In this document: positions 6,227-62,291 of the stretch, piece by piece
Position numbering within the stretch: position 1 is the first letter of the stretch
Layout: every line of letters starts with the position of its first letter
Assembly (NCBI GenBank): GCA_041661385.1
Contig: JBAZUP010000002.1
Coordinates: 14,670-78,669, forward strand
Direction: 5' to 3'
Origin: Patescibacteria group bacterium
GTDB taxonomy: Bacteria; Patescibacteriota; Patescibacteriia; Magasanikbacterales; GWA2-37-8
DNA length: 64,000 nt
Made by a program: the position numbers and the translations under genes
Notes under the pieces: generated by a model
Told to the model about the DNA's origin: nothing
The model's database searches: none
Seen by the model: the letters and a program-made list of their open reading frames with translations, nothing else

Positions 6227-6255
6227 TTGACAAAAGTGCAAAAAAGGAGTATAAT
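6227..6255 (+). promoter_or_regulatory. Consensus sigma70-type promoter TTGACA-17 nt-TATAAT
   Basis: TTGACA at 6227-6232, 17-nt spacer, TATAAT at 6250-6255. It drives a ~115-nt leader and the ORF at 6373. Confidence 0.65.
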
Positions 6256-6372
6256 GTTATGTTTTGATAATTAGGGGTAGAAGTCACTTTTTCCTCTGAT
6301 TATCGAAGCAAAACGCTTTCGAGAAGTAGGCTTGTCCTACGCAGTTCTTTCCAACCCAAACCAGGAGAAACG

Positions 6373-6915
6373 ATGTCCACGTCCCATGTTTATTTGAACA
6401 TTTTTCTCGTTGTCATGTTCTTTGGTAGCCTTGCTACCGCGGTCCTCTTCCGGAGCCGTTTTACGCGCTTGCTCAGCATCGCGATCATGTTGTCGGTTAT
6501 CGTGATCGTTTTCACTGTTCGTCACGAAGACGAGCATGACCTGCTTTCCAAGTTTCAGGCTACGAGCTTCGGAACTCTAGATATTGATGAGGTCGCGAGA
6601 TCCGCGTCCGACTGCCATAGCGGCAAGCTCGCGAAGGGCACCAATCGGTGCGCTCCTGATCAATTTCGAGTTTGCCTGAGCAGTGCCGGAGTTCCGGTTA
6701 CTTTCTGGGCGGGTTCAAGATTTAGCGGAACGCGTCTAACGGGTTCCGACAAGTGCGTGCTTAGCGATCCAAGCTCAGGGGAGACGGCCGCGACCGGCGT
6801 CGGTGAAATGTTCGGCTCTTGCCGGCAGTTTACTTTTTGGGAGCTAGACGGTGTTCCCTGTTGGTGGCGTGCCCCCAATTATCTCGCGACATGGGATCGC
6901 GGCAGAATCTATTAA
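6373..6915 (+). CDS. Hypothetical membrane-anchored protein with two N-terminal TM helices and a Cys-rich C-terminal domain (GC-rich islet)
   Basis: 180 aa. RBS CAGGAGA upstream of the ATG. Hydrophobic N-terminus LNIFLVVMFFGSLATAVLF and LLSIAIMLSVIVIVFTV. Several Cys in the C-terminal half. Confidence 0.5.
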   Translation: MSTSHVYLNIFLVVMFFGSLATAVLFRSRFTRLLSIAIMLSVIVIVFTVRHEDEHDLLSKFQATSFGTLDIDEVARSASDCHSGKLAKGTNRCAPDQFRVCLSSAGVPVTFWAGSRFSGTRLTGSDKCVLSDPSSGETAATGVGEMFGSCRQFTFWELDGVPCWWRAPNYLATWDRGRIY

Positions 6916-7018
6916 GTAATAGAAAAATGGTTTGGCACGAGTTCTCCGAAGCTCGCCGCCTTACCACTTTGTTTGCAAAAAAATTGCAGATAAAGTGGTG
7001 GCGAGCTTCTAAATAATT

Positions 7019-7050
7019 TAAAAAACCACCCATTTGGGTGGTTTTTTATT
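7019..7050. terminator. Bidirectional intrinsic terminator between the convergent 6373 gene and htpX
   Basis: AAAAACCACCCATTTGGGTGGTTTTTTATTT, a perfect hairpin with A-run and T-run flanks. Confidence 0.7.
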
Positions 7051-29092: not shown

Positions 29093-29179
29093 AAGTGATT
29101 AGATAAATATATAAATGTTTTCCAGCTGATATTATACTCCTTTGTTATCGGTTTGAAAATGTGCTACCCTTAATAAAGA

Positions 29180-44871: not shown

Positions 44872-44905
44872 TCAAAAAGACCAGTGAAGCTGGTCTTTTT
44901 TTATT
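44872..44905 (+). terminator. Intrinsic terminator after trxA
   Basis: AGACCAGTGAAGCTGGTCT followed by TTTTTTTATT. Confidence 0.7.
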
Positions 44906-45300
44906 CTCGCTATCCCCGCCTACAACGCTTTGCGTAGCAATGCGGGCAGGGCTCAATCAATTTTAAGTTTACCATATATTCAATTTTCCTTAGCCCTGCC
45001 GGCGGCATCACTTTTCATAACTGAAAAGTAATCAAAAGGTTCTGGGGGCCGGCAGAACTCGTCGTGCGAACTCCTCAAACAGCTGGCGGCCCCCAAACCC
45101 CCGTTGGGTAATTAGTTTGTCAGCTTCGATTCCGAGCATATGTGAAACGACTGCAAACTTCCCGGCGAAATTAGTTTTTTCAATGCGACTTTGTACTTTT
45201 GAAAAAATCGTTAAGATTGAGCCGAGGAATTTGCGGAGTGGAGCATCAGCTCGGCGCCTTTTGGGCTCCACCCGTTTTGGGCGCACAAAATGGGTGGAAT
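44906..45300 (+). repeat. Copy A of a ~395-bp GC-rich hairpin-dense repeat (candidate structured RNA element)
   Basis: Near-identical over ~200 nt to 52955-53160, then ~70% identical with indels. Contains at least 5 strong stem-loops. ORFs 45117-45302 (+) and 45032-45364 (-) inside it are probably artefacts. Confidence 0.7.
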
Positions 45301-52338: not shown

Positions 52339-52944
52339 ATGAAAAAAGTAAAAGTATATGATTCGAGGGAGGGGTATAATCTCGCTGCGCACGAATATGA
52401 TAAGCGTGAAGCTTATCTTGGAAGTTTTGAAAAAAATCAACTCATCCCGTTGCTTGGAGATTTGAAGGGCAAGAAAGTTCTTGATGTGGGAGCGGGAACC
52501 GGCCGGTTATCGGTTTCATTTGCGAGACTAGGGGCAGGCGTTACCGCGCTCGACGTTTCGGAAACAATGCTTCAGGAATTATCAAAAAAGAACCGCAACA
52601 TTAAAACCGTAATCGGTGACGCGGAAAGTTTGCCTTTTGAAAACGAAGCATTTGATATTGTCGCCGCCGCTTTTCTTATTGTCCACTTGAAAGACCCGAC
52701 CAAATTTTTTGATGAAGCTTATCGCGTATTAAAGGACGGCGGAATTTTTTTAGTGACAAATATTAATCAAAAAGATCCGCCTAAGATCAAAGCCCACAAT
52801 CATGAGTTTGTGGTCGAATCGTTTTATCATCGCCCGGAGAAAATTAGGGAGATATTGGAATCTTTGGCGTTTGGAATAGAGAAAGAAGAGTTTATAAAAG
52901 AAAATGATGTTTGGATTAATCAAATAATTCTTGCTAGAAAATAG
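52339..52944 (+). CDS. Class I SAM-dependent methyltransferase
   Basis: VLDVGAGTGRLS motif I. 201 aa. Its promoter/5' end (TATAAT...CAAACAAAATGAAAAAAGTAAAAGT) is duplicated at the 3' end of comEC. Confidence 0.75.
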   Translation: MKKVKVYDSREGYNLAAHEYDKREAYLGSFEKNQLIPLLGDLKGKKVLDVGAGTGRLSVSFARLGAGVTALDVSETMLQELSKKNRNIKTVIGDAESLPFENEAFDIVAAAFLIVHLKDPTKFFDEAYRVLKDGGIFLVTNINQKDPPKIKAHNHEFVVESFYHRPEKIREILESLAFGIEKEEFIKENDVWINQIILARK

Positions 52945-52954
52945 TTTTACGCAT

Positions 52955-53350
52955 CTCGCTATCCCCGCCTGCAACGCTTTGCGTAGCAATGCGGGCAGGG
53001 CTCAATCAATTCAACACTTACCTTAATTCAATATTCCTTAGCCCTGCCGGCGGCATCACTTTTCATAACTGAAAAGTAATCAAAAGGTTCTGGGGGCCGG
53101 CAGAACTCGTTGCCGCGAGGCACCTCAAACAGCTGGCGGCCCCCAAACCCCGTTGGGTAATTGGTTGGTAAACAATTGGATTCCGAGCCTTTGTGGAACG
53201 AAAGCCAAATGTCCGGCGAAATTAGATTTTTTCAATGCGACCCTGCACTTTTGAAAAAATCGTTTTGATTTCGCCGAGACATTTGCCGAGTGAAGCATCT
53301 GCGAGGCAATTTTGGGGGCACACCTTTTGTTGCCAAAAGGGGTGTGGAAT
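52955..53350 (+). repeat. Copy B of the ~395-bp GC-rich hairpin-dense repeat
   Basis: Starts directly after the methyltransferase stop codon. Aligned to copy A in the text of the findings. Its last hairpin overlaps the putative RBS of the downstream ComEC-MBL gene. Confidence 0.7.
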
Positions 53351-53360
53351 AAAATGTTTT

Positions 53361-54191
53361 GTGACAAAAAACAAAATTTTAATAATCGCAATTATAATAA
53401 TCCTAGGGGGATTTTTTTATTTCCGCTATTCTGAAGCGGAACGCCACAAATTTAAGATTGTATTTTTAAATGTCGGCCAGGGTGATGCAACTGTAATACA
53501 ATTTGAAACTGGAGAAAAAATGTTGGTGGATTGTGGGCCTGATCGGGGGATTCTCTCGGCACTTGGTCGCAACCTGGCTTTTTACGACCGTACTATTGAT
53601 TACCTTTTAATCTCTCATCCCGATCTTGATCATTATGGCGGCTGTGTGGATGTTTTAAAAAATTATCAGATAAAAAAGATCTATATAAATGGACGGGAAA
53701 AAACCGACTCGTATTTTCGGGAGTGGAAAAGTGTGAGTACCGGATATTTAACTGAAATCGCCGGCGTCTCAACCACTCTCACCATTGCTTCATCGTCGTT
53801 CCGATTTTTTTCGCCGGACTTATCTTTGGTTTTTAAAAATAAAATATCCGATAATGATTATTCAATAATTTTTAAATTAAGCCATGGTAGCAGCAGTTAT
53901 TTGTTTACCGGCGACGCCGAAGAAACGCTGGAAAAATTATTAGTTGAAAAATATTGTCCGGAAGTAAATAATGCCTGTCCACTTCAGTCTGGTGTTTTGA
54001 AAGTTGGTCACCACGGTTCCGACGGATCTTCGAGTGAGTTATTTTTGTCGCGGGTGAAGCCAATTGAAGCTGTCATTTCGGTTGGCAAGAATAAATTCGG
54101 CCATCCGGGCCTGCGTGCCATCCGCCACCTTGAAAGAATTGGCGCGAAAATCAAACGGACTGATGAAAGCGGGGACATTTCTATAAAATGA
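53361..54191 (+). CDS. ComEC-type metallo-beta-lactamase-fold domain protein with an N-terminal TM anchor (detached C-terminal domain of ComEC)
   Basis: FLNVGQGDATVIQ ... ISHPDLDHYGG (HxHxDH) ... VGHHGS. GTG start at 53361. The in-frame ORF extending upstream to 53235 runs through repeat B and is not conserved with copy A at the protein level. Confidence 0.7.
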   Translation: MTKNKILIIAIIIILGGFFYFRYSEAERHKFKIVFLNVGQGDATVIQFETGEKMLVDCGPDRGILSALGRNLAFYDRTIDYLLISHPDLDHYGGCVDVLKNYQIKKIYINGREKTDSYFREWKSVSTGYLTEIAGVSTTLTIASSSFRFFSPDLSLVFKNKISDNDYSIIFKLSHGSSSYLFTGDAEETLEKLLVEKYCPEVNNACPLQSGVLKVGHHGSDGSSSELFLSRVKPIEAVISVGKNKFGHPGLRAIRHLERIGAKIKRTDESGDISIK

Positions 54192-54365
54192 AAAACTCTT
54201 GACGATATTCGTCGGCAAGAGTAAACTTTTTGTAAATATAGGCTGGCTTGCCAGCTGCTACAAAAGCGGCTCAGGCCGCACCTGGGGGCCCCTCCCCATC
54301 AGCGCCGTCGATCCAAAGATCTCCGGCGCTTTAAATTTAGATGAAATTTACTGTGCAAAATAGCC

Positions 54366-54394
54366 TTGACAAAGTTGATAAAAAGGAGTATAAT
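54366..54394 (+). promoter_or_regulatory. Consensus promoter TTGACA-17-TATAAT, near-duplicate of the promoter at 6227
   Basis: TTGACAAAGTTGATAAAAAGGAGTATAAT vs TTGACAAAAGTGCAAAAAAGGAGTATAAT. Confidence 0.65.
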
Positions 54395-54399
54395 TCGAT

Positions 54400-54740
54400 G
54401 TTGTGACAGTACGGAATTAGCCATTTTTGGCTTATCTGGCTGACGATTTTGGCTTGTTTTGAGCCAAGGTCGGCAGCCGGATTTCCCGGCGCCACAACCA
54501 AAGGGGTCTTTAAAGACTCAAATGACGACCATCACCAGCTTCAGCTTTTCCCACGTTCACATCGATCGTCACACCGCGGGCGCCGTCGCGCCCTGACCCG
54601 TCGCCGCCGGCCGCCGAAGCCGACAGTTAGCGCCTGGTGCGCTACCTGACCGGTTAGGCCAACCAACTCCTCATGGAGGAGTCACATCGTGAAGATCACG
54701 AAGCCGAAGGTTCCGCTGTAGCGGATACAACCCCCAACAC
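54400..54740 (+). other. GC-rich (~58% GC) transcribed segment between the promoter and terminator with no convincing ORF: candidate non-coding RNA of unknown class
   Basis: Only ORFs are a TTG-initiated Arg-rich 66-aa frame without an SD, plus 24-aa and 10-aa fragments. Hallmark motifs of tmRNA (T-arm/CCA), RNase P (GGAAAGTCC) and SRP were looked for by eye and not found. Confidence 0.35.
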
Positions 54741-54778
54741 CGGGCGGCCGAGCAATCGGCCGCCCTCATCTTTTTTTG
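54740..54778 (+). terminator. Intrinsic terminator
   Basis: GGGCGGCCGAGCAATCGGCCGCCC followed by TCATCTTTTTTT. Confidence 0.7.
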
Positions 54779-54834
54779 GAAACAAAAACAAAAAATGTTA
54801 TAATAATTGCGCCTCGTTTTAGGGCACGGGCATT

Positions 54835-55440
54835 ATGAAAAAATATTTTATAATTTTAATTGTTTTCTTTACATTGGTTTTTATTTTTCCGGCGCGGGCT
54901 GCCGAAGAAATAGATAGTGACAACGACGGTTTGTCTGATAGTGTAGAAATTTCTTTAGGAACAGATCCAAACAATGTTGATACGGACGGTGACGGATTTT
55001 TAGACGGTGTCGAAGTAAAGAATGGTTTTAATCCCTTGAAGGGAAACAAAGACCGCTCGGTGAAGCGCCGGGTAGAAGTGAATCTTGCCACGCAGTCACT
55101 TGATTATTTTTTAAATGATATTAAGGTCGGTTCAGTATTTGTTTCTACCGGTCTTCCTCAAACTCCCACTCCAAAAGGGGAATTTAGCATTATTAGAAAA
55201 CGCCCGATTGTAAATTATTATCATTATCCAAATACCAAGTGGAGCGCTGAGTTCAAAAAAGGTTTCTATATTCATGGCGCTTATTGGCATAATAAATTTG
55301 GTATTCAGGTTATGAGCGGCGGATGTGTGAATGTTGCTTACAAAGATATGGAAGCTTTGTATTCATTCCTGAGTCTCGGCGATAAAGTAAAGATTTTTGG
55401 AGTTCCACCCAAAAAACCGCTAGCACTGTCAAAAAAATAG
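54835..55440 (+). CDS. Secreted L,D-transpeptidase (YkuD domain) with N-terminal calcium-binding Asp-rich repeats
   Basis: Signal peptide. DSDNDGLSDSVE / DTDGDGFLDGVE repeats. Catalytic HGAYWHNKFGIQVMSGGCVNV. Confidence 0.8.
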   Translation: MKKYFIILIVFFTLVFIFPARAAEEIDSDNDGLSDSVEISLGTDPNNVDTDGDGFLDGVEVKNGFNPLKGNKDRSVKRRVEVNLATQSLDYFLNDIKVGSVFVSTGLPQTPTPKGEFSIIRKRPIVNYYHYPNTKWSAEFKKGFYIHGAYWHNKFGIQVMSGGCVNVAYKDMEALYSFLSLGDKVKIFGVPPKKPLALSKK

Positions 55441-55587
55441 AGGTTGATCCCGCTTCACTAGGGAGCAGGGCAAGCAAAAAGTGATGTTTGACAAAACTGT
55501 TTGCCTCGTGTATCATATTGACAGTAATAGCACGATTAAATATCGGTGCTTTTTTTTAACCTAATTTTAATTTAGTAGGAAATAAGT

Positions 55588-56799
55588 ATGTCAGAAATTA
55601 CCAAAGCAATTCAGGCGCTCTGCGATGAGAAAGCCCTCAGTTATGAAGCGGTCATGGAAACCATTGAAGCGGCGCTCGCTGCAGCTTACCGCAAAGATTT
55701 TGGCAACAAGCAACAAAACATCAAAGTAAAATTTGACCCGGACACTGGGGATATGGAAGCTTGGGATGTGAAAACTGTTGTTGAAGATATTGAACCGGAA
55801 GCGCTAGAAAAAGCTCAAGAAGAACTTTCTGCTCGCCGTGAAAAAGCGCGCGGAGAAAATCGCGAACTTACCGAAGAAGAAATGGCCGATTTGCCTCGCT
55901 TCAATCCAAAAACTGAAATCATGATGGCTGAAGCAAAAGTAATTAAAAAGAAAGCCAAAATCGGCGACGTTCTTGAAATTGTTCTCGAAATTCCGCACGA
56001 CTTCGGACGCATGGCCGCCCAGACTGCGAAACAAGTTATTATTCAAAAGATTCGTGAGGCCGAACGCAATATGGTATTCGGAGATTTCAAAGGGCAAGAA
56101 GGCCAAATTATTATGGGTACGATTCAGCGCGTGGAAGGACGTAAAGTTTTGGTTGATCTTGGAAAAATTACCGGTATCATGCCAAGCGACCAACAAAATT
56201 ACAACGAACATTACCGCCCGGGCAACCGCATGAAATTTTATGCTGTGTCTGTGCAGATGACAAATAAAGGGCCGGAAATCGTATTATCACGCAGTGACAA
56301 AGGCATGGTTCGCGAAATTTTCAAGCAAGAAATTCCTGAAGTTCAATCGGGAGTCATTGAAATAAAAGGCATTGCCCGCGACCCGGGTTTCCGTTCCAAA
56401 GTTGCTGTTGCAACCAGTGATCCATCGATTGATCCAATCGGCTCATGTATCGGTCAGCGCGGCAGCCGTATTAACACCATTATTGAAGAACTTGGCGGTG
56501 AAAAAATTGATGTGATTCAATATAATGAAGACGCTGTTAAATATATTTCTCACGCTCTTTCTCCGGCAAAAATTTTGTCGGTAGATTTGAACGAAGGCGA
56601 CAAGGTTGCGACTGTCTCGGTTGCACCTGAGCAATTTTCTATTGCCATCGGACGCAGCGGACAAAATGTGCGCCTCGCTTCCGAATTGGTAGGTTGGAAA
56701 ATAAATGTTCAGGAACCGGCCGGCGGAGCAGTTAAAGATGAAGCAGTAGAAACTGCCGAAACAACCGAAGAAGTTAAAGAAGAAACTAACAAAGAATAA
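55588..56799 (+). CDS. nusA: Transcription termination/antitermination factor NusA
   Basis: N-terminal domain, S1, and two KH domains (GSCIGQRGSRINTI, GRSGQNVRLA). Preceded by TTGACA-17-TATCAT (about 55487-55515). Confidence 0.9.
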   Translation: MSEITKAIQALCDEKALSYEAVMETIEAALAAAYRKDFGNKQQNIKVKFDPDTGDMEAWDVKTVVEDIEPEALEKAQEELSARREKARGENRELTEEEMADLPRFNPKTEIMMAEAKVIKKKAKIGDVLEIVLEIPHDFGRMAAQTAKQVIIQKIREAERNMVFGDFKGQEGQIIMGTIQRVEGRKVLVDLGKITGIMPSDQQNYNEHYRPGNRMKFYAVSVQMTNKGPEIVLSRSDKGMVREIFKQEIPEVQSGVIEIKGIARDPGFRSKVAVATSDPSIDPIGSCIGQRGSRINTIIEELGGEKIDVIQYNEDAVKYISHALSPAKILSVDLNEGDKVATVSVAPEQFSIAIGRSGQNVRLASELVGWKINVQEPAGGAVKDEAVETAETTEEVKEETNKE

Positions 56800-62255: not shown

Positions 62256-62291
62256 CCTGCCCGCATTGCTACGCAAAGCGTTGCAGGCGGG
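62256..62291 (-). repeat. Isolated inverted copy of the 5' hairpin module of the 395-bp repeat
   Basis: CCTGCCCGCATTGCTACGCAAAGCGTTGCAGGCGGG is the reverse complement of CCCGCCTGCAACGCTTTGCGTAGCAATGCGGGCAGG at 52965-53000. The real groEL terminator hairpin follows at 62312-62345. Confidence 0.65.

Follow-up and report, generated by a model that had tools for sequence, protein, structure and literature searches.

A short GC-rich unit at 54366-54777 of the 64-kb stretch of DNA analysed here (the window, W) reads, judged from its own sequence and that of its relatives, as a genuine small gene with a transcript of its own. It belongs to an uncultured Magasanikbacteria bacterium, a member of the Candidate Phyla Radiation (CPR). 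All coordinates are those of the window and refer to the + strand unless stated. We regard it as an even call that this gene encodes a structured small RNA (sRNA) combining a folded 5' domain with translated micro-open reading frames (mini-ORFs). A sequence-only reading of the same DNA had proposed the unit as a candidate non-coding RNA (ncRNA). The discrete, structured unit, which has no counterpart in Rfam, stands, whereas "non-coding" is unsupported, as mini-ORFs led by Shine-Dalgarno (SD) sequences are conserved in relatives, and the unit is probably not purely non-coding.

A discrete promoter-to-terminator unit

The promoter at 54366-54394, TTGACAAA-N6-AAAAAGGAGTATAAT, is a perfect sigma-70-type element that matches TTGACA-17-TATAAT at 12 of 12 positions, just as the sequence-only reading had it. 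It is the top-scoring of 23 promoter-like sites between 52000 and 57000 and one of only two perfect sites in the entire window, where our own base-composition estimate gives about 0.07 as the number expected by chance. Closer relatives were located via their flanking proteins and their contigs compared at the locus; the loci and contigs of these relatives, and of other assemblies compared with the window, are labelled Lnnn. The promoter is conserved in all members of the resulting family, and the GTGCAAAA box just 5' of the -35 hexamer (54353-54360), a candidate UP-like element or regulator site, is identical in W, L043, L166 and L038.

An extended form of the promoter, TTGACAAA-N6-AAAAAGGAGTAYAAT, was matched exactly at least 118 times in a public metagenome collection (loci L046-L163), several of the matches lying on contigs from CPR-rich groundwater sets. 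The matches precede unrelated protein genes and one tRNA, often with RGTT about 5-8 nt 3' of the -10 element, and the occurrence of the motif before real genes supports 54366-54394 as a working consensus promoter rather than a chance match. In the window, the AAAGGAGTATAAT part near the -10 element is found three times (6227-6255, 29131-29143 on the - strand and 54366-54394). Searches with nhmmer and a covariance model found no relatives of the RNA downstream of the 118 same-promoter matches. GC-rich islands are unsupported as a general trait of this promoter class (mean GC difference 0.011), and the 5' untranslated regions of GC-rich lipoprotein genes (L148, L157, L162), considered as homologues, bear no detectable relation to the unit. 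The extended consensus could help to annotate transcription units in CPR-rich groundwater metagenomes.

At its 3' end the unit closes with the strong intrinsic terminator that had been predicted (54742-54777), which comprises a stem-loop, GGGCGGCCGAGCAATCGGCCGCCC (54742-54765), with a stem of 10 pairs, nine of them G-C, and a 4-nt GCAA loop, followed by TCATC and a run of seven Ts (54771-54777). The stem is identical in L043, L038 and L166, and L040 keeps it through compensatory changes (GGGCGGUCGC/GCGACCGCCC). A separate downstream promoter, TTGGAA-17-TATAAT with an extended -10 TG (54776-54804; 10/12), serves the L,D-transpeptidase gene that starts at 54835 and thus marks the 3' boundary of the unit.

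The GC content, put earlier at about 58% over some 340 nt, is 57.5% at 54401-54741, or 59.2% if the terminator stem is counted, against 41.6% for the window, whose strongest GC island is 54449-54784. The helices quoted in the sequence-only reading are present and the region is highly structured: the minimum free energy (MFE) of the + strand is -155.9 kcal/mol, whereas dinucleotide shuffles give -122.7 +/- 5.6 (z = -5.9). Since short, nearly perfect palindromes make up much of the structure, the - strand reaches a similar value (z = -5.4).

A folded and covarying 5' domain

Homologous but modular units occupy the same spacer in the relatives. The unit is full-length in L043 (about 430 nt), has the full 5' domain in L166, measures about 280 nt in L038/L039, is truncated at its 5' end by the contig end in L040 and lacks the 5' domain in L165. 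More distant members are L170, whose P3 hairpin matches our covariance model R1 with E = 7e-4, and L168/L169, in which the 5' domain is reduced. Alignments A1 and A4 give the order of modules as the GTGCAAAA box and promoter, the 5' domain, an SD-like box with hairpin P5, a middle region, one to three mini-ORFs, and the terminator.

The structured 5' domain of the window (54400-54498) was examined with alignment A2, which holds the domains of W, L043, L166 and L038 and from which RNAalifold derived a consensus structure of a closing helix P1 (54400-54405 with 54493-54498), a hairpin P2 (54418-54434) and a long irregular hairpin P3 (54434-54482) that includes a conserved GCCGGAU. In this alignment 94% of cells are paired, as compared with 27-52% in slid-partner controls, five pairs are changed on both sides, and the covariation score was reached by none of 500 shuffles. 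Conserved G.U pairs favour the + strand, on which model R1 scores 132 bits, as against 30 on the - strand. Immediately downstream, the SD-like AAAGGGG (54500-54506) overlaps the covarying hairpin P5 (54503-54519); AAGGRGG is present in every member having the 5' domain, and the position of P5 is kept with different stems (GUCU/AGAC, GUGCC/GGCAC, GUCCC/GGGAC). The covariation that the sequence-only reading had proposed looking for is therefore found, in the form of compensatory base changes, and with four distinct sequences it is suggestive of selection on the helices of the 5' domain (54400-54519).

Between P5 and the mini-ORFs, the middle region contains GC-rich hairpins and is indel-rich among W, L043 and L166. 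In the window it includes hairpin Ha (54578-54593) and, in the MFE structure, hairpin Hb (UAGCGC-CUGGU-GCGCUA, 54628-54644), which is preceded by CGAAGCCGACAGTT, a repeat of the 3' part of the mini-ORF described below as ORF-A (direct repeat D2, 54615-54628 and 54699-54712). Further 3', an anti-SD/SD hairpin (CUCCUC-AUG-GAGGAG, 54667-54681), present in both the MFE and the centroid structures and represented in L166 by CCUCCAUGGAUGGAGG, covers the ORF-A ribosome-binding site, and hairpin Hc (54712-54725) contains the ORF-A stop codon.

Conserved mini-ORFs

Every unit in the family carries SD-led frames of 8-11 codons, with a GGAG-type SD 5-8 nt upstream of each copy. The 5' domain being absent from L165, no component other than the mini-ORFs is shared by the whole family. 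In the window the frame is ORF-A (54689-54721; GTG AAG ATC ACG AAG CCG AAG GTT CCG CTG TAG, or MKITKPKVPL*), with a GGAGGAG SD 7 nt upstream. Its counterpart reads MTKTTKPKVPL* in both L043 and L040, where the block shared with W differs only by AAG/AAA and GTT/GTG/GTC, and MPRSGVPP* in L166; the start codon alternates between GUG and AUG among copies. A second family, ORF-B, follows the pattern MAxxKGxxx* in relatives (MARKKGSPF*, MAPKKGTPY*, MADRKGTPF*) and occurs in three tandem copies in L165 (MATNKGVIS*, MAKEKGAVF*, MATKKGAPL*). It is exactly 9 codons long in seven of seven copies and varies synonymously, Ala2 being GCC, GCA or GCG and Gly6 being GGC, GGG or GGA. When the two families are pooled, column entropy averages 0.29, 0.37 and 0.79 at codon positions 1, 2 and 3, respectively (permutation p = 0.004). 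Five codons vary at position 3 alone, and in none is variation confined to position 1 or to position 2. Each of the 12 copies has TAG as its stop codon, a codon that closes only 11 of the 49 long ORFs in the window. The ORF-A and ORF-B patterns were found nowhere else in the 1.33 Mb of sequence examined.

These frames bear directly on the sequence-only account of the coding potential. The 66-aa TTG frame that it dismissed (54449-54649) is real, but three further frames had been missed: a 45-aa TTG frame (54459-54596) that contains the 24-aa ATG frame, a 49-aa ATG frame (54673-54822) that crosses the terminator, and the SD-led 10-codon GTG frame at 54689-54721. Its statement that there is no plausible long ORF holds, in that relatives conserve none of the long frames. 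The finding that it had named as fatal to an ncRNA, a small conserved ORF that has homologues, is nevertheless partly present in 54689-54721, with KPKVPL in L043 and L040.

A further candidate, the 24-codon ORF-C (MTTITSFSFSHVHIDRHTAGAVAP*, 54522-54596), has its AUG right after the SD-like box and its stop just past Ha. An SD-led AUG frame also stands at this position in L170 (MTTGPP..., 17 aa) and L168 (MNTGPP..., 16 aa); in L043, L166 and L038 the equivalent of the start is AUA or AUC, in the P5 loop. ORF-C is weakly conserved in sequence and its translation is uncertain.

Could the unit instead be a purely non-coding regulatory or scaffold RNA, with mini-ORFs that are by-products of conserved motifs? 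GGAGG boxes would then bind a protein or the 3' end of 16S rRNA, and the hairpins would merely happen to contain UAG. The strong fold and 5'-domain covariation fit such an RNA, as do the frequent placement of SDs and starts inside hairpins, the several GGAG-type boxes without a usable start (for instance after P1 in L043, L166 and L038) and the lack of a conserved long ORF. However, the period-three variation (p = 0.004) follows precisely the frame that SD, start and stop define, the 9-codon length is fixed in seven copies, and the start is kept through the GUG/AUG change. In addition, the ORF-B peptide is kept although its local hairpins differ, CCCC/GGGG in L038 and GAAGGG/CCCUUC in L040 and L043, which argues against a purely structural constraint. 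We therefore consider a purely non-coding RNA unlikely.

Genomic context and distribution

In the window the unit follows a methyltransferase gene (52339-52944) and a ComEC-type metallo-beta-lactamase (MBL) hydrolase gene (ending at 54191) and precedes the L,D-transpeptidase gene (54835-55440) and nusA (55588-56799); the families represented among the neighbours are methyltransferase, Lactamase_B, YkuD, NusA, YidC and PRC. The order methyltransferase, ComEC-type MBL, L,D-transpeptidase and NusA is conserved around nusA in 35 GTDB species loci, in which nhmmer and blastn found no homologue of 54395-54780. The ComEC-to-transpeptidase spacer is 0-385 nt in these 35 loci compared with 644 nt in the window. 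Lack of the unit together with shorter spacers identifies it as a lineage-specific occupant of a variable spacer. L044 and L045, whose ComEC proteins are 71% and 67% identical to that of the window, likewise lack the unit and have other cargo in the spacer. The assemblies ENA ERZ27249449 and Logan SRR18595301 are identical to the window. Loci anchored on NusA place the organism in Candidatus Magasanikbacteria, within the CPR/Patescibacteria.

A pattern scan of JGI metagenomes for the 5' domain gave 0 matches, and covariance model R1 recovered only family members over 1.3 Mb. On this evidence the unit represents a clade-specific family of a small Magasanikbacteria sub-clade, one that is new yet of a known general kind, although it may be more widely distributed than these collection scans show. 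Contigs tend to break in or near the GC-rich hairpin region: L037 begins at window 54742, L040 has its first base within the RNA, and the JGI contigs L041 and L042 end just upstream of the promoter, at the upstream hairpin H3. The breaks probably reflect bias in coverage or GC, or else differences among strains in the variable spacer, and homologues will consequently be under-represented in short-contig collections.

Cargo is also found behind a homologous leader, in L166 (4383-4565), in the form of a GC-rich 60-aa two-helix ORFan (MAKNFGPFSTARDER...) for which no homologues were found. Its SD can pair with an upstream UUCCU, and its N-terminus, MAKNFGPF, resembles the ORF-B peptide MAKEKGAVF, which hints that the mini-ORFs and the small cargo proteins may be connected in evolution.

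Proposed function and alternatives

We envisage the unit as an independent, strongly promoted gene whose transcript of roughly 370 nt would have two functional layers. The first would be the GC-rich folded 5' leader, with P1-P3 followed by the SD-like element and P5, and the second one or more very short SD-led frames, in the window ORF-A and possibly ORF-C, ahead of an efficient intrinsic terminator. In this model ribosomes are taken to translate the mini-ORFs, and the peptide sequence is assumed to be important; both the making of the RNA and its translation are inferred here. The ORF-A ribosome site is sequestered and its GUG lies in a stem, which suggests that structure limits or conditions translation; the anti-SD hairpin (54667-54681), the stem-held start and the hairpin-held stop would gate or pace the access of ribosomes. 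The Lys/Thr/Pro-rich peptides may act in trans after release, or the nascent peptide may act in cis together with the UAG stop.

Several points weigh against this model. All of the evidence is drawn from metagenome assemblies, in which the homologues are few and related by descent. The sample holds only four distinct 5' domains and 6-7 distinct mini-ORF copies. Because the copies share ancestry, the covariation shuffles overstate independence, as does the count of TAG stops, which are not 12 independent events. Translation may be weak in the window, where pairing takes up the whole ORF-A SD and a stem encloses the GUG start. The sets of mini-ORFs also vary, the window having no ORF-B and L038 no ORF-A, while L170 and L168 carry other frames with TAA or TGA stops; such differences fit a rapidly turning-over or partly decaying element. 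Finally, peptides of 9-11 residues without a partner gene offer no obvious function.

One alternative retains the mini-ORFs but places their function entirely in cis, the unit being a leader or attenuator in which a ribosome on the Lys/Thr/Pro-rich mini-ORF, for example during slow termination at UAG, decides whether the terminator forms and thereby tunes read-through into the L,D-transpeptidase gene and nusA or into a cargo gene. The peptides have the size and composition of leader peptides, the units always lie upstream of nusA, with or without the transpeptidase gene between, and in five of six lineages the last mini-ORF stops 9-20 nt ahead of the terminator stem. In the window the ORF-A stop (54719-54721) is 20 nt from the stem; in relatives the corresponding distance is 9-16 nt. 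Given the size of the ribosome footprint, though, a ribosome at the ORF-A stop would barely reach the stem. Moreover, the terminator of the window unit is a strong one, and the transpeptidase gene is served by a promoter of its own (54776-54804). Relatives that lack the unit have short spacers, from which the same genes are expressed, the transpeptidase gene directly following that of ComEC, and the downstream genes vary between lineages. Comparison and inspection of the alignments revealed no conserved antiterminator pairing across members: only the window has the CGGCCGCC copy, at about 54607-54614; in its place the other members have AUCGCCGGCGCC, which does not pair with the terminator arm. 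Thus a leader ORF and a terminator are present, but a conserved antiterminator is not, nor is a gene dependent on read-through. A possible exception as to the dependent gene is L166, whose terminator hairpin has no U-run and is followed by the SD-led 60-aa membrane-protein ORF. We consider an attenuator improbable.

We also give little chance to the unit being the decaying remnant of a horizontally acquired, type I toxin-antitoxin-like cargo cassette, made up of a promoter, a long structured leader, a small membrane or toxin-like gene and a terminator, whose protein gene has been deleted in the window lineage and which now has little or no function. The spacer between the ComEC gene and the transpeptidase gene or nusA is indeed a hotspot, with different ORFan cargo in L002, L038, L044, L045, L166 and L168. 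The unit is patchily distributed, being absent from L044 and L045, its modules are gained and lost around an indel-rich middle region, and L166 retains its two-helix ORFan behind the leader. On the other hand, lineages whose flanking proteins share only 63-77% identity have all kept the promoter, the GTGCAAAA box, the 5' helices, the mini-ORF peptides and the terminator stem, which would be expected to disappear under neutral decay, and the unit is retained without a cargo gene in five of six close lineages. The window unit (54395-54780) contains no hydrophobic ORF, and there is no significant complementarity between the RNA and the upstream hairpin element that might have served as its antisense partner.

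A TIGR-Tas guide-RNA array is excluded because no Nop-domain Tas gene occurs among the neighbours and the unit has neither periodic units nor a repeat family.

A bolder version of the translated, structured sRNA would make it an undescribed class of bacterial gene, in which a folded RNA scaffold presents one to three tandem, strongly SD-led ORFs of 9-11 codons, with the peptides (MAxxKGxP[FYL], TKPKVPL) and the UAG stop under selection. This version we hold only tentatively, and rather doubt. Were it true, these would be the first bacterial polycistronic micropeptide genes, or else RNAs that engage ribosomes and sense UAG termination (release factor 1, or A-site nucleases), and only host-dependent CPR bacteria would possess the class. 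Should the mini-ORFs prove to be translated, they would push the minimum length of a conserved bacterial coding sequence lower (to 9 codons, in tandem copies) and provide a model for the co-evolution of structured RNA and micro-ORFs in a fast-changing intergenic hotspot; if they are not, the 5' domain would still be a new RNA motif limited to one clade. CPR/Patescibacteria are uncultured, genome-reduced episymbionts, and to our knowledge almost nothing has been reported of their small RNAs and micro-proteins. The locus offers a concrete, testable case that standard gene callers and Rfam alike have missed.

Known RNA classes and other identities

No known RNA family accounts for the unit, in agreement with the by-eye impression in the sequence-only reading that hallmarks of tmRNA, RNase P, SRP and 6S RNA are lacking. 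Rfam 15 at gathering thresholds returned only two tRNAs for the whole window, both elsewhere, and its E-value mode gave only terminator-shaped matches over 54100-54900, of 13-19 bits against thresholds of 38-97. No match to its families, among them tmRNA, RNase P, SRP, 6S, T-box, raiA, OLE, HEARO, ROOL and GOLLD, was obtained for the window unit, nor any Rfam match for the homologous units of L043, L166, L165, L038 and L040. A by-eye search of the unit for the T-box consensus was negative. A tmRNA has a tRNA-like acceptor/T-arm domain and a tag reading frame without a start codon; ARAGORN found no tmRNA in the window, and the mini-ORFs, unlike a tag frame, carry their own SD and start codons.

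A long coding ORF was also rejected, since six-frame cross-lineage comparison matches all frames wherever the DNA is conserved and no long frame is kept, the 66-aa Arg/Pro frame included. The template repeat of a diversity-generating retroelement, or another repeat, was rejected on finding no second copy in the window and no tandem or dispersed repeat family. Blastn against phage and plasmid collections and three IMG/VR pattern scans returned nothing relevant to a phage or plasmid origin.

Neighbouring elements and other features of the window

Directly after the stop of the ComEC-type MBL gene lies a promoter-like site, TTGACG-17-TAAACT (54199-54227; 9/12), whose TTGAC-17/18-TAnnnT form W, L043, L166, L038 and L041 have in common. 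Three conserved hairpins follow at 54240-54340, H1 (54240-54256), H2 (54266-54279) and H3 (54302-54329), the last terminator-like with a U-rich tail. RNAalifold on alignment A3, which holds the same five loci, gives 24 pairs, eight of them changed on both sides. The element is either a candidate sRNA of about 100 nt or the terminator of the comEC operon, built of several hairpins.

Two copies of an intergenic element of some 370 nt, 86-90% identical, are present in the window, one following a thioredoxin-like gene (44905-45265) and the other the methyltransferase gene (52950-53325). Its 36-nt hairpin core, TCCCCGCCTGCAACGCTTTGCGTAGCAATGCGGGCAGGG, has a third window copy at 62256-62291 on the - strand and occurs twice in an unrelated metagenome contig, L102 (982-1017, 1992-2029). 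The element has no Rfam match; it may be a repeat resembling a miniature inverted-repeat transposable element or a repeated structured RNA. The mechanically called 318-aa ORF of the ComEC-type MBL begins inside this element (window 53235-53411); homologues align only from about residue 60, the NCBI protein is 276 aa, and the true start is probably near 53360-53412.

The other perfect promoter of the window (6227-6255) is followed by a leader of 115 nt and an ORFan of 180 aa (6373-6915) that is GC-rich (up to 61%) and membrane-anchored and for which no Pfam family was found. The region (6227-7040) ends in its own terminator, and the ORFan looks like another cargo-type gene.

The nusA leader (55488-55560) has a promoter, TTGACA-17-TATCAT, followed by a hairpin, AGCACG-AUUAAAUAU-CGGUGCU, with eight Us, and this hairpin is kept with compensatory changes upstream of nusA in L165, L168 and L170. 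NusA autoregulation has been described for Bacillus, and by analogy the hairpin could be a terminator-like attenuator that mediates it.

Comparison with known systems

The descriptions of dual-function sRNAs, attenuators, type I toxins and tarsal-less used in these comparisons are general knowledge; that of TIGR-Tas is taken from the literature. TIGR-Tas systems are stem-loop guide-RNA arrays known from CPR bacteria and phages, with tandem units in which box C/D motifs flank two spacers of 8-12 nt, and a Nop-domain Tas protein (PMC12045711). The unit resembles them in its occurrence in CPR genomes and as a transcribed run of variable palindromic hairpins with a rho-independent terminator (PMC12045711), but box C/D motifs are not conserved across its members and the conservation seen here is codon-like.

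Type I toxin mRNAs such as hok/mok and tisB, with its standby site, share the long structured 5' region and sequestered SDs; their loci also share a patchy, hotspot-like distribution, and L166 has a 60-aa hydrophobic ORF behind its leader. Unlike these loci, however, the window unit has no toxin-like ORF, its conserved parts being tiny hydrophilic ORFs, and the upstream hairpin element, considered as an antisense partner of the RNA, gave a duplex energy no better than shuffles.

With leader-peptide attenuators (thrL, trpL, pheL; erm/cat) the unit has in common a short SD-led, Thr/Lys/Pro-rich ORF immediately before an intrinsic terminator, of a length similar to the erm/cat leaders. It differs in lacking a conserved antiterminator, in the approximately 290 nt of structured RNA that precede the ORF, and in its absence from most relatives that share the downstream genes; and because the transpeptidase gene has its own promoter, there is no dependent downstream gene in the window.

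As an analogy only, the insect tarsal-less/polished rice gene likewise contains tandem ORFs of about 10 codons with a shared motif, as in L165, and was once deemed non-coding. It is eukaryotic and unrelated, with 11-aa repeats, whereas the window has a single copy of ORF-A. We know of no bacterial counterpart of such polycistronic micropeptide RNAs.

The dual-function sRNAs, among them B. subtilis SR1/SR1P, S. aureus RNAIII/delta-haemolysin, E. coli SgrS/SgrT and Spot 42/SpfP, are likewise independent units of a few hundred nucleotides that join a stable structure and a small SD-led ORF in one RNA, and like them the unit has its own promoter and terminator, apart from the neighbouring genes. 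There is no sequence or Rfam relation; their ORFs have 15-43 or more codons as compared with 9-11 here, the present units at times hold two or three tandem ORF copies, and the class regulates target mRNAs by base-pairing. In kind, the unit appears to stand nearer to dual-function sRNAs or micro-peptide mRNAs than to housekeeping RNAs of the classical sort or to ncRNAs that act purely by base-pairing.

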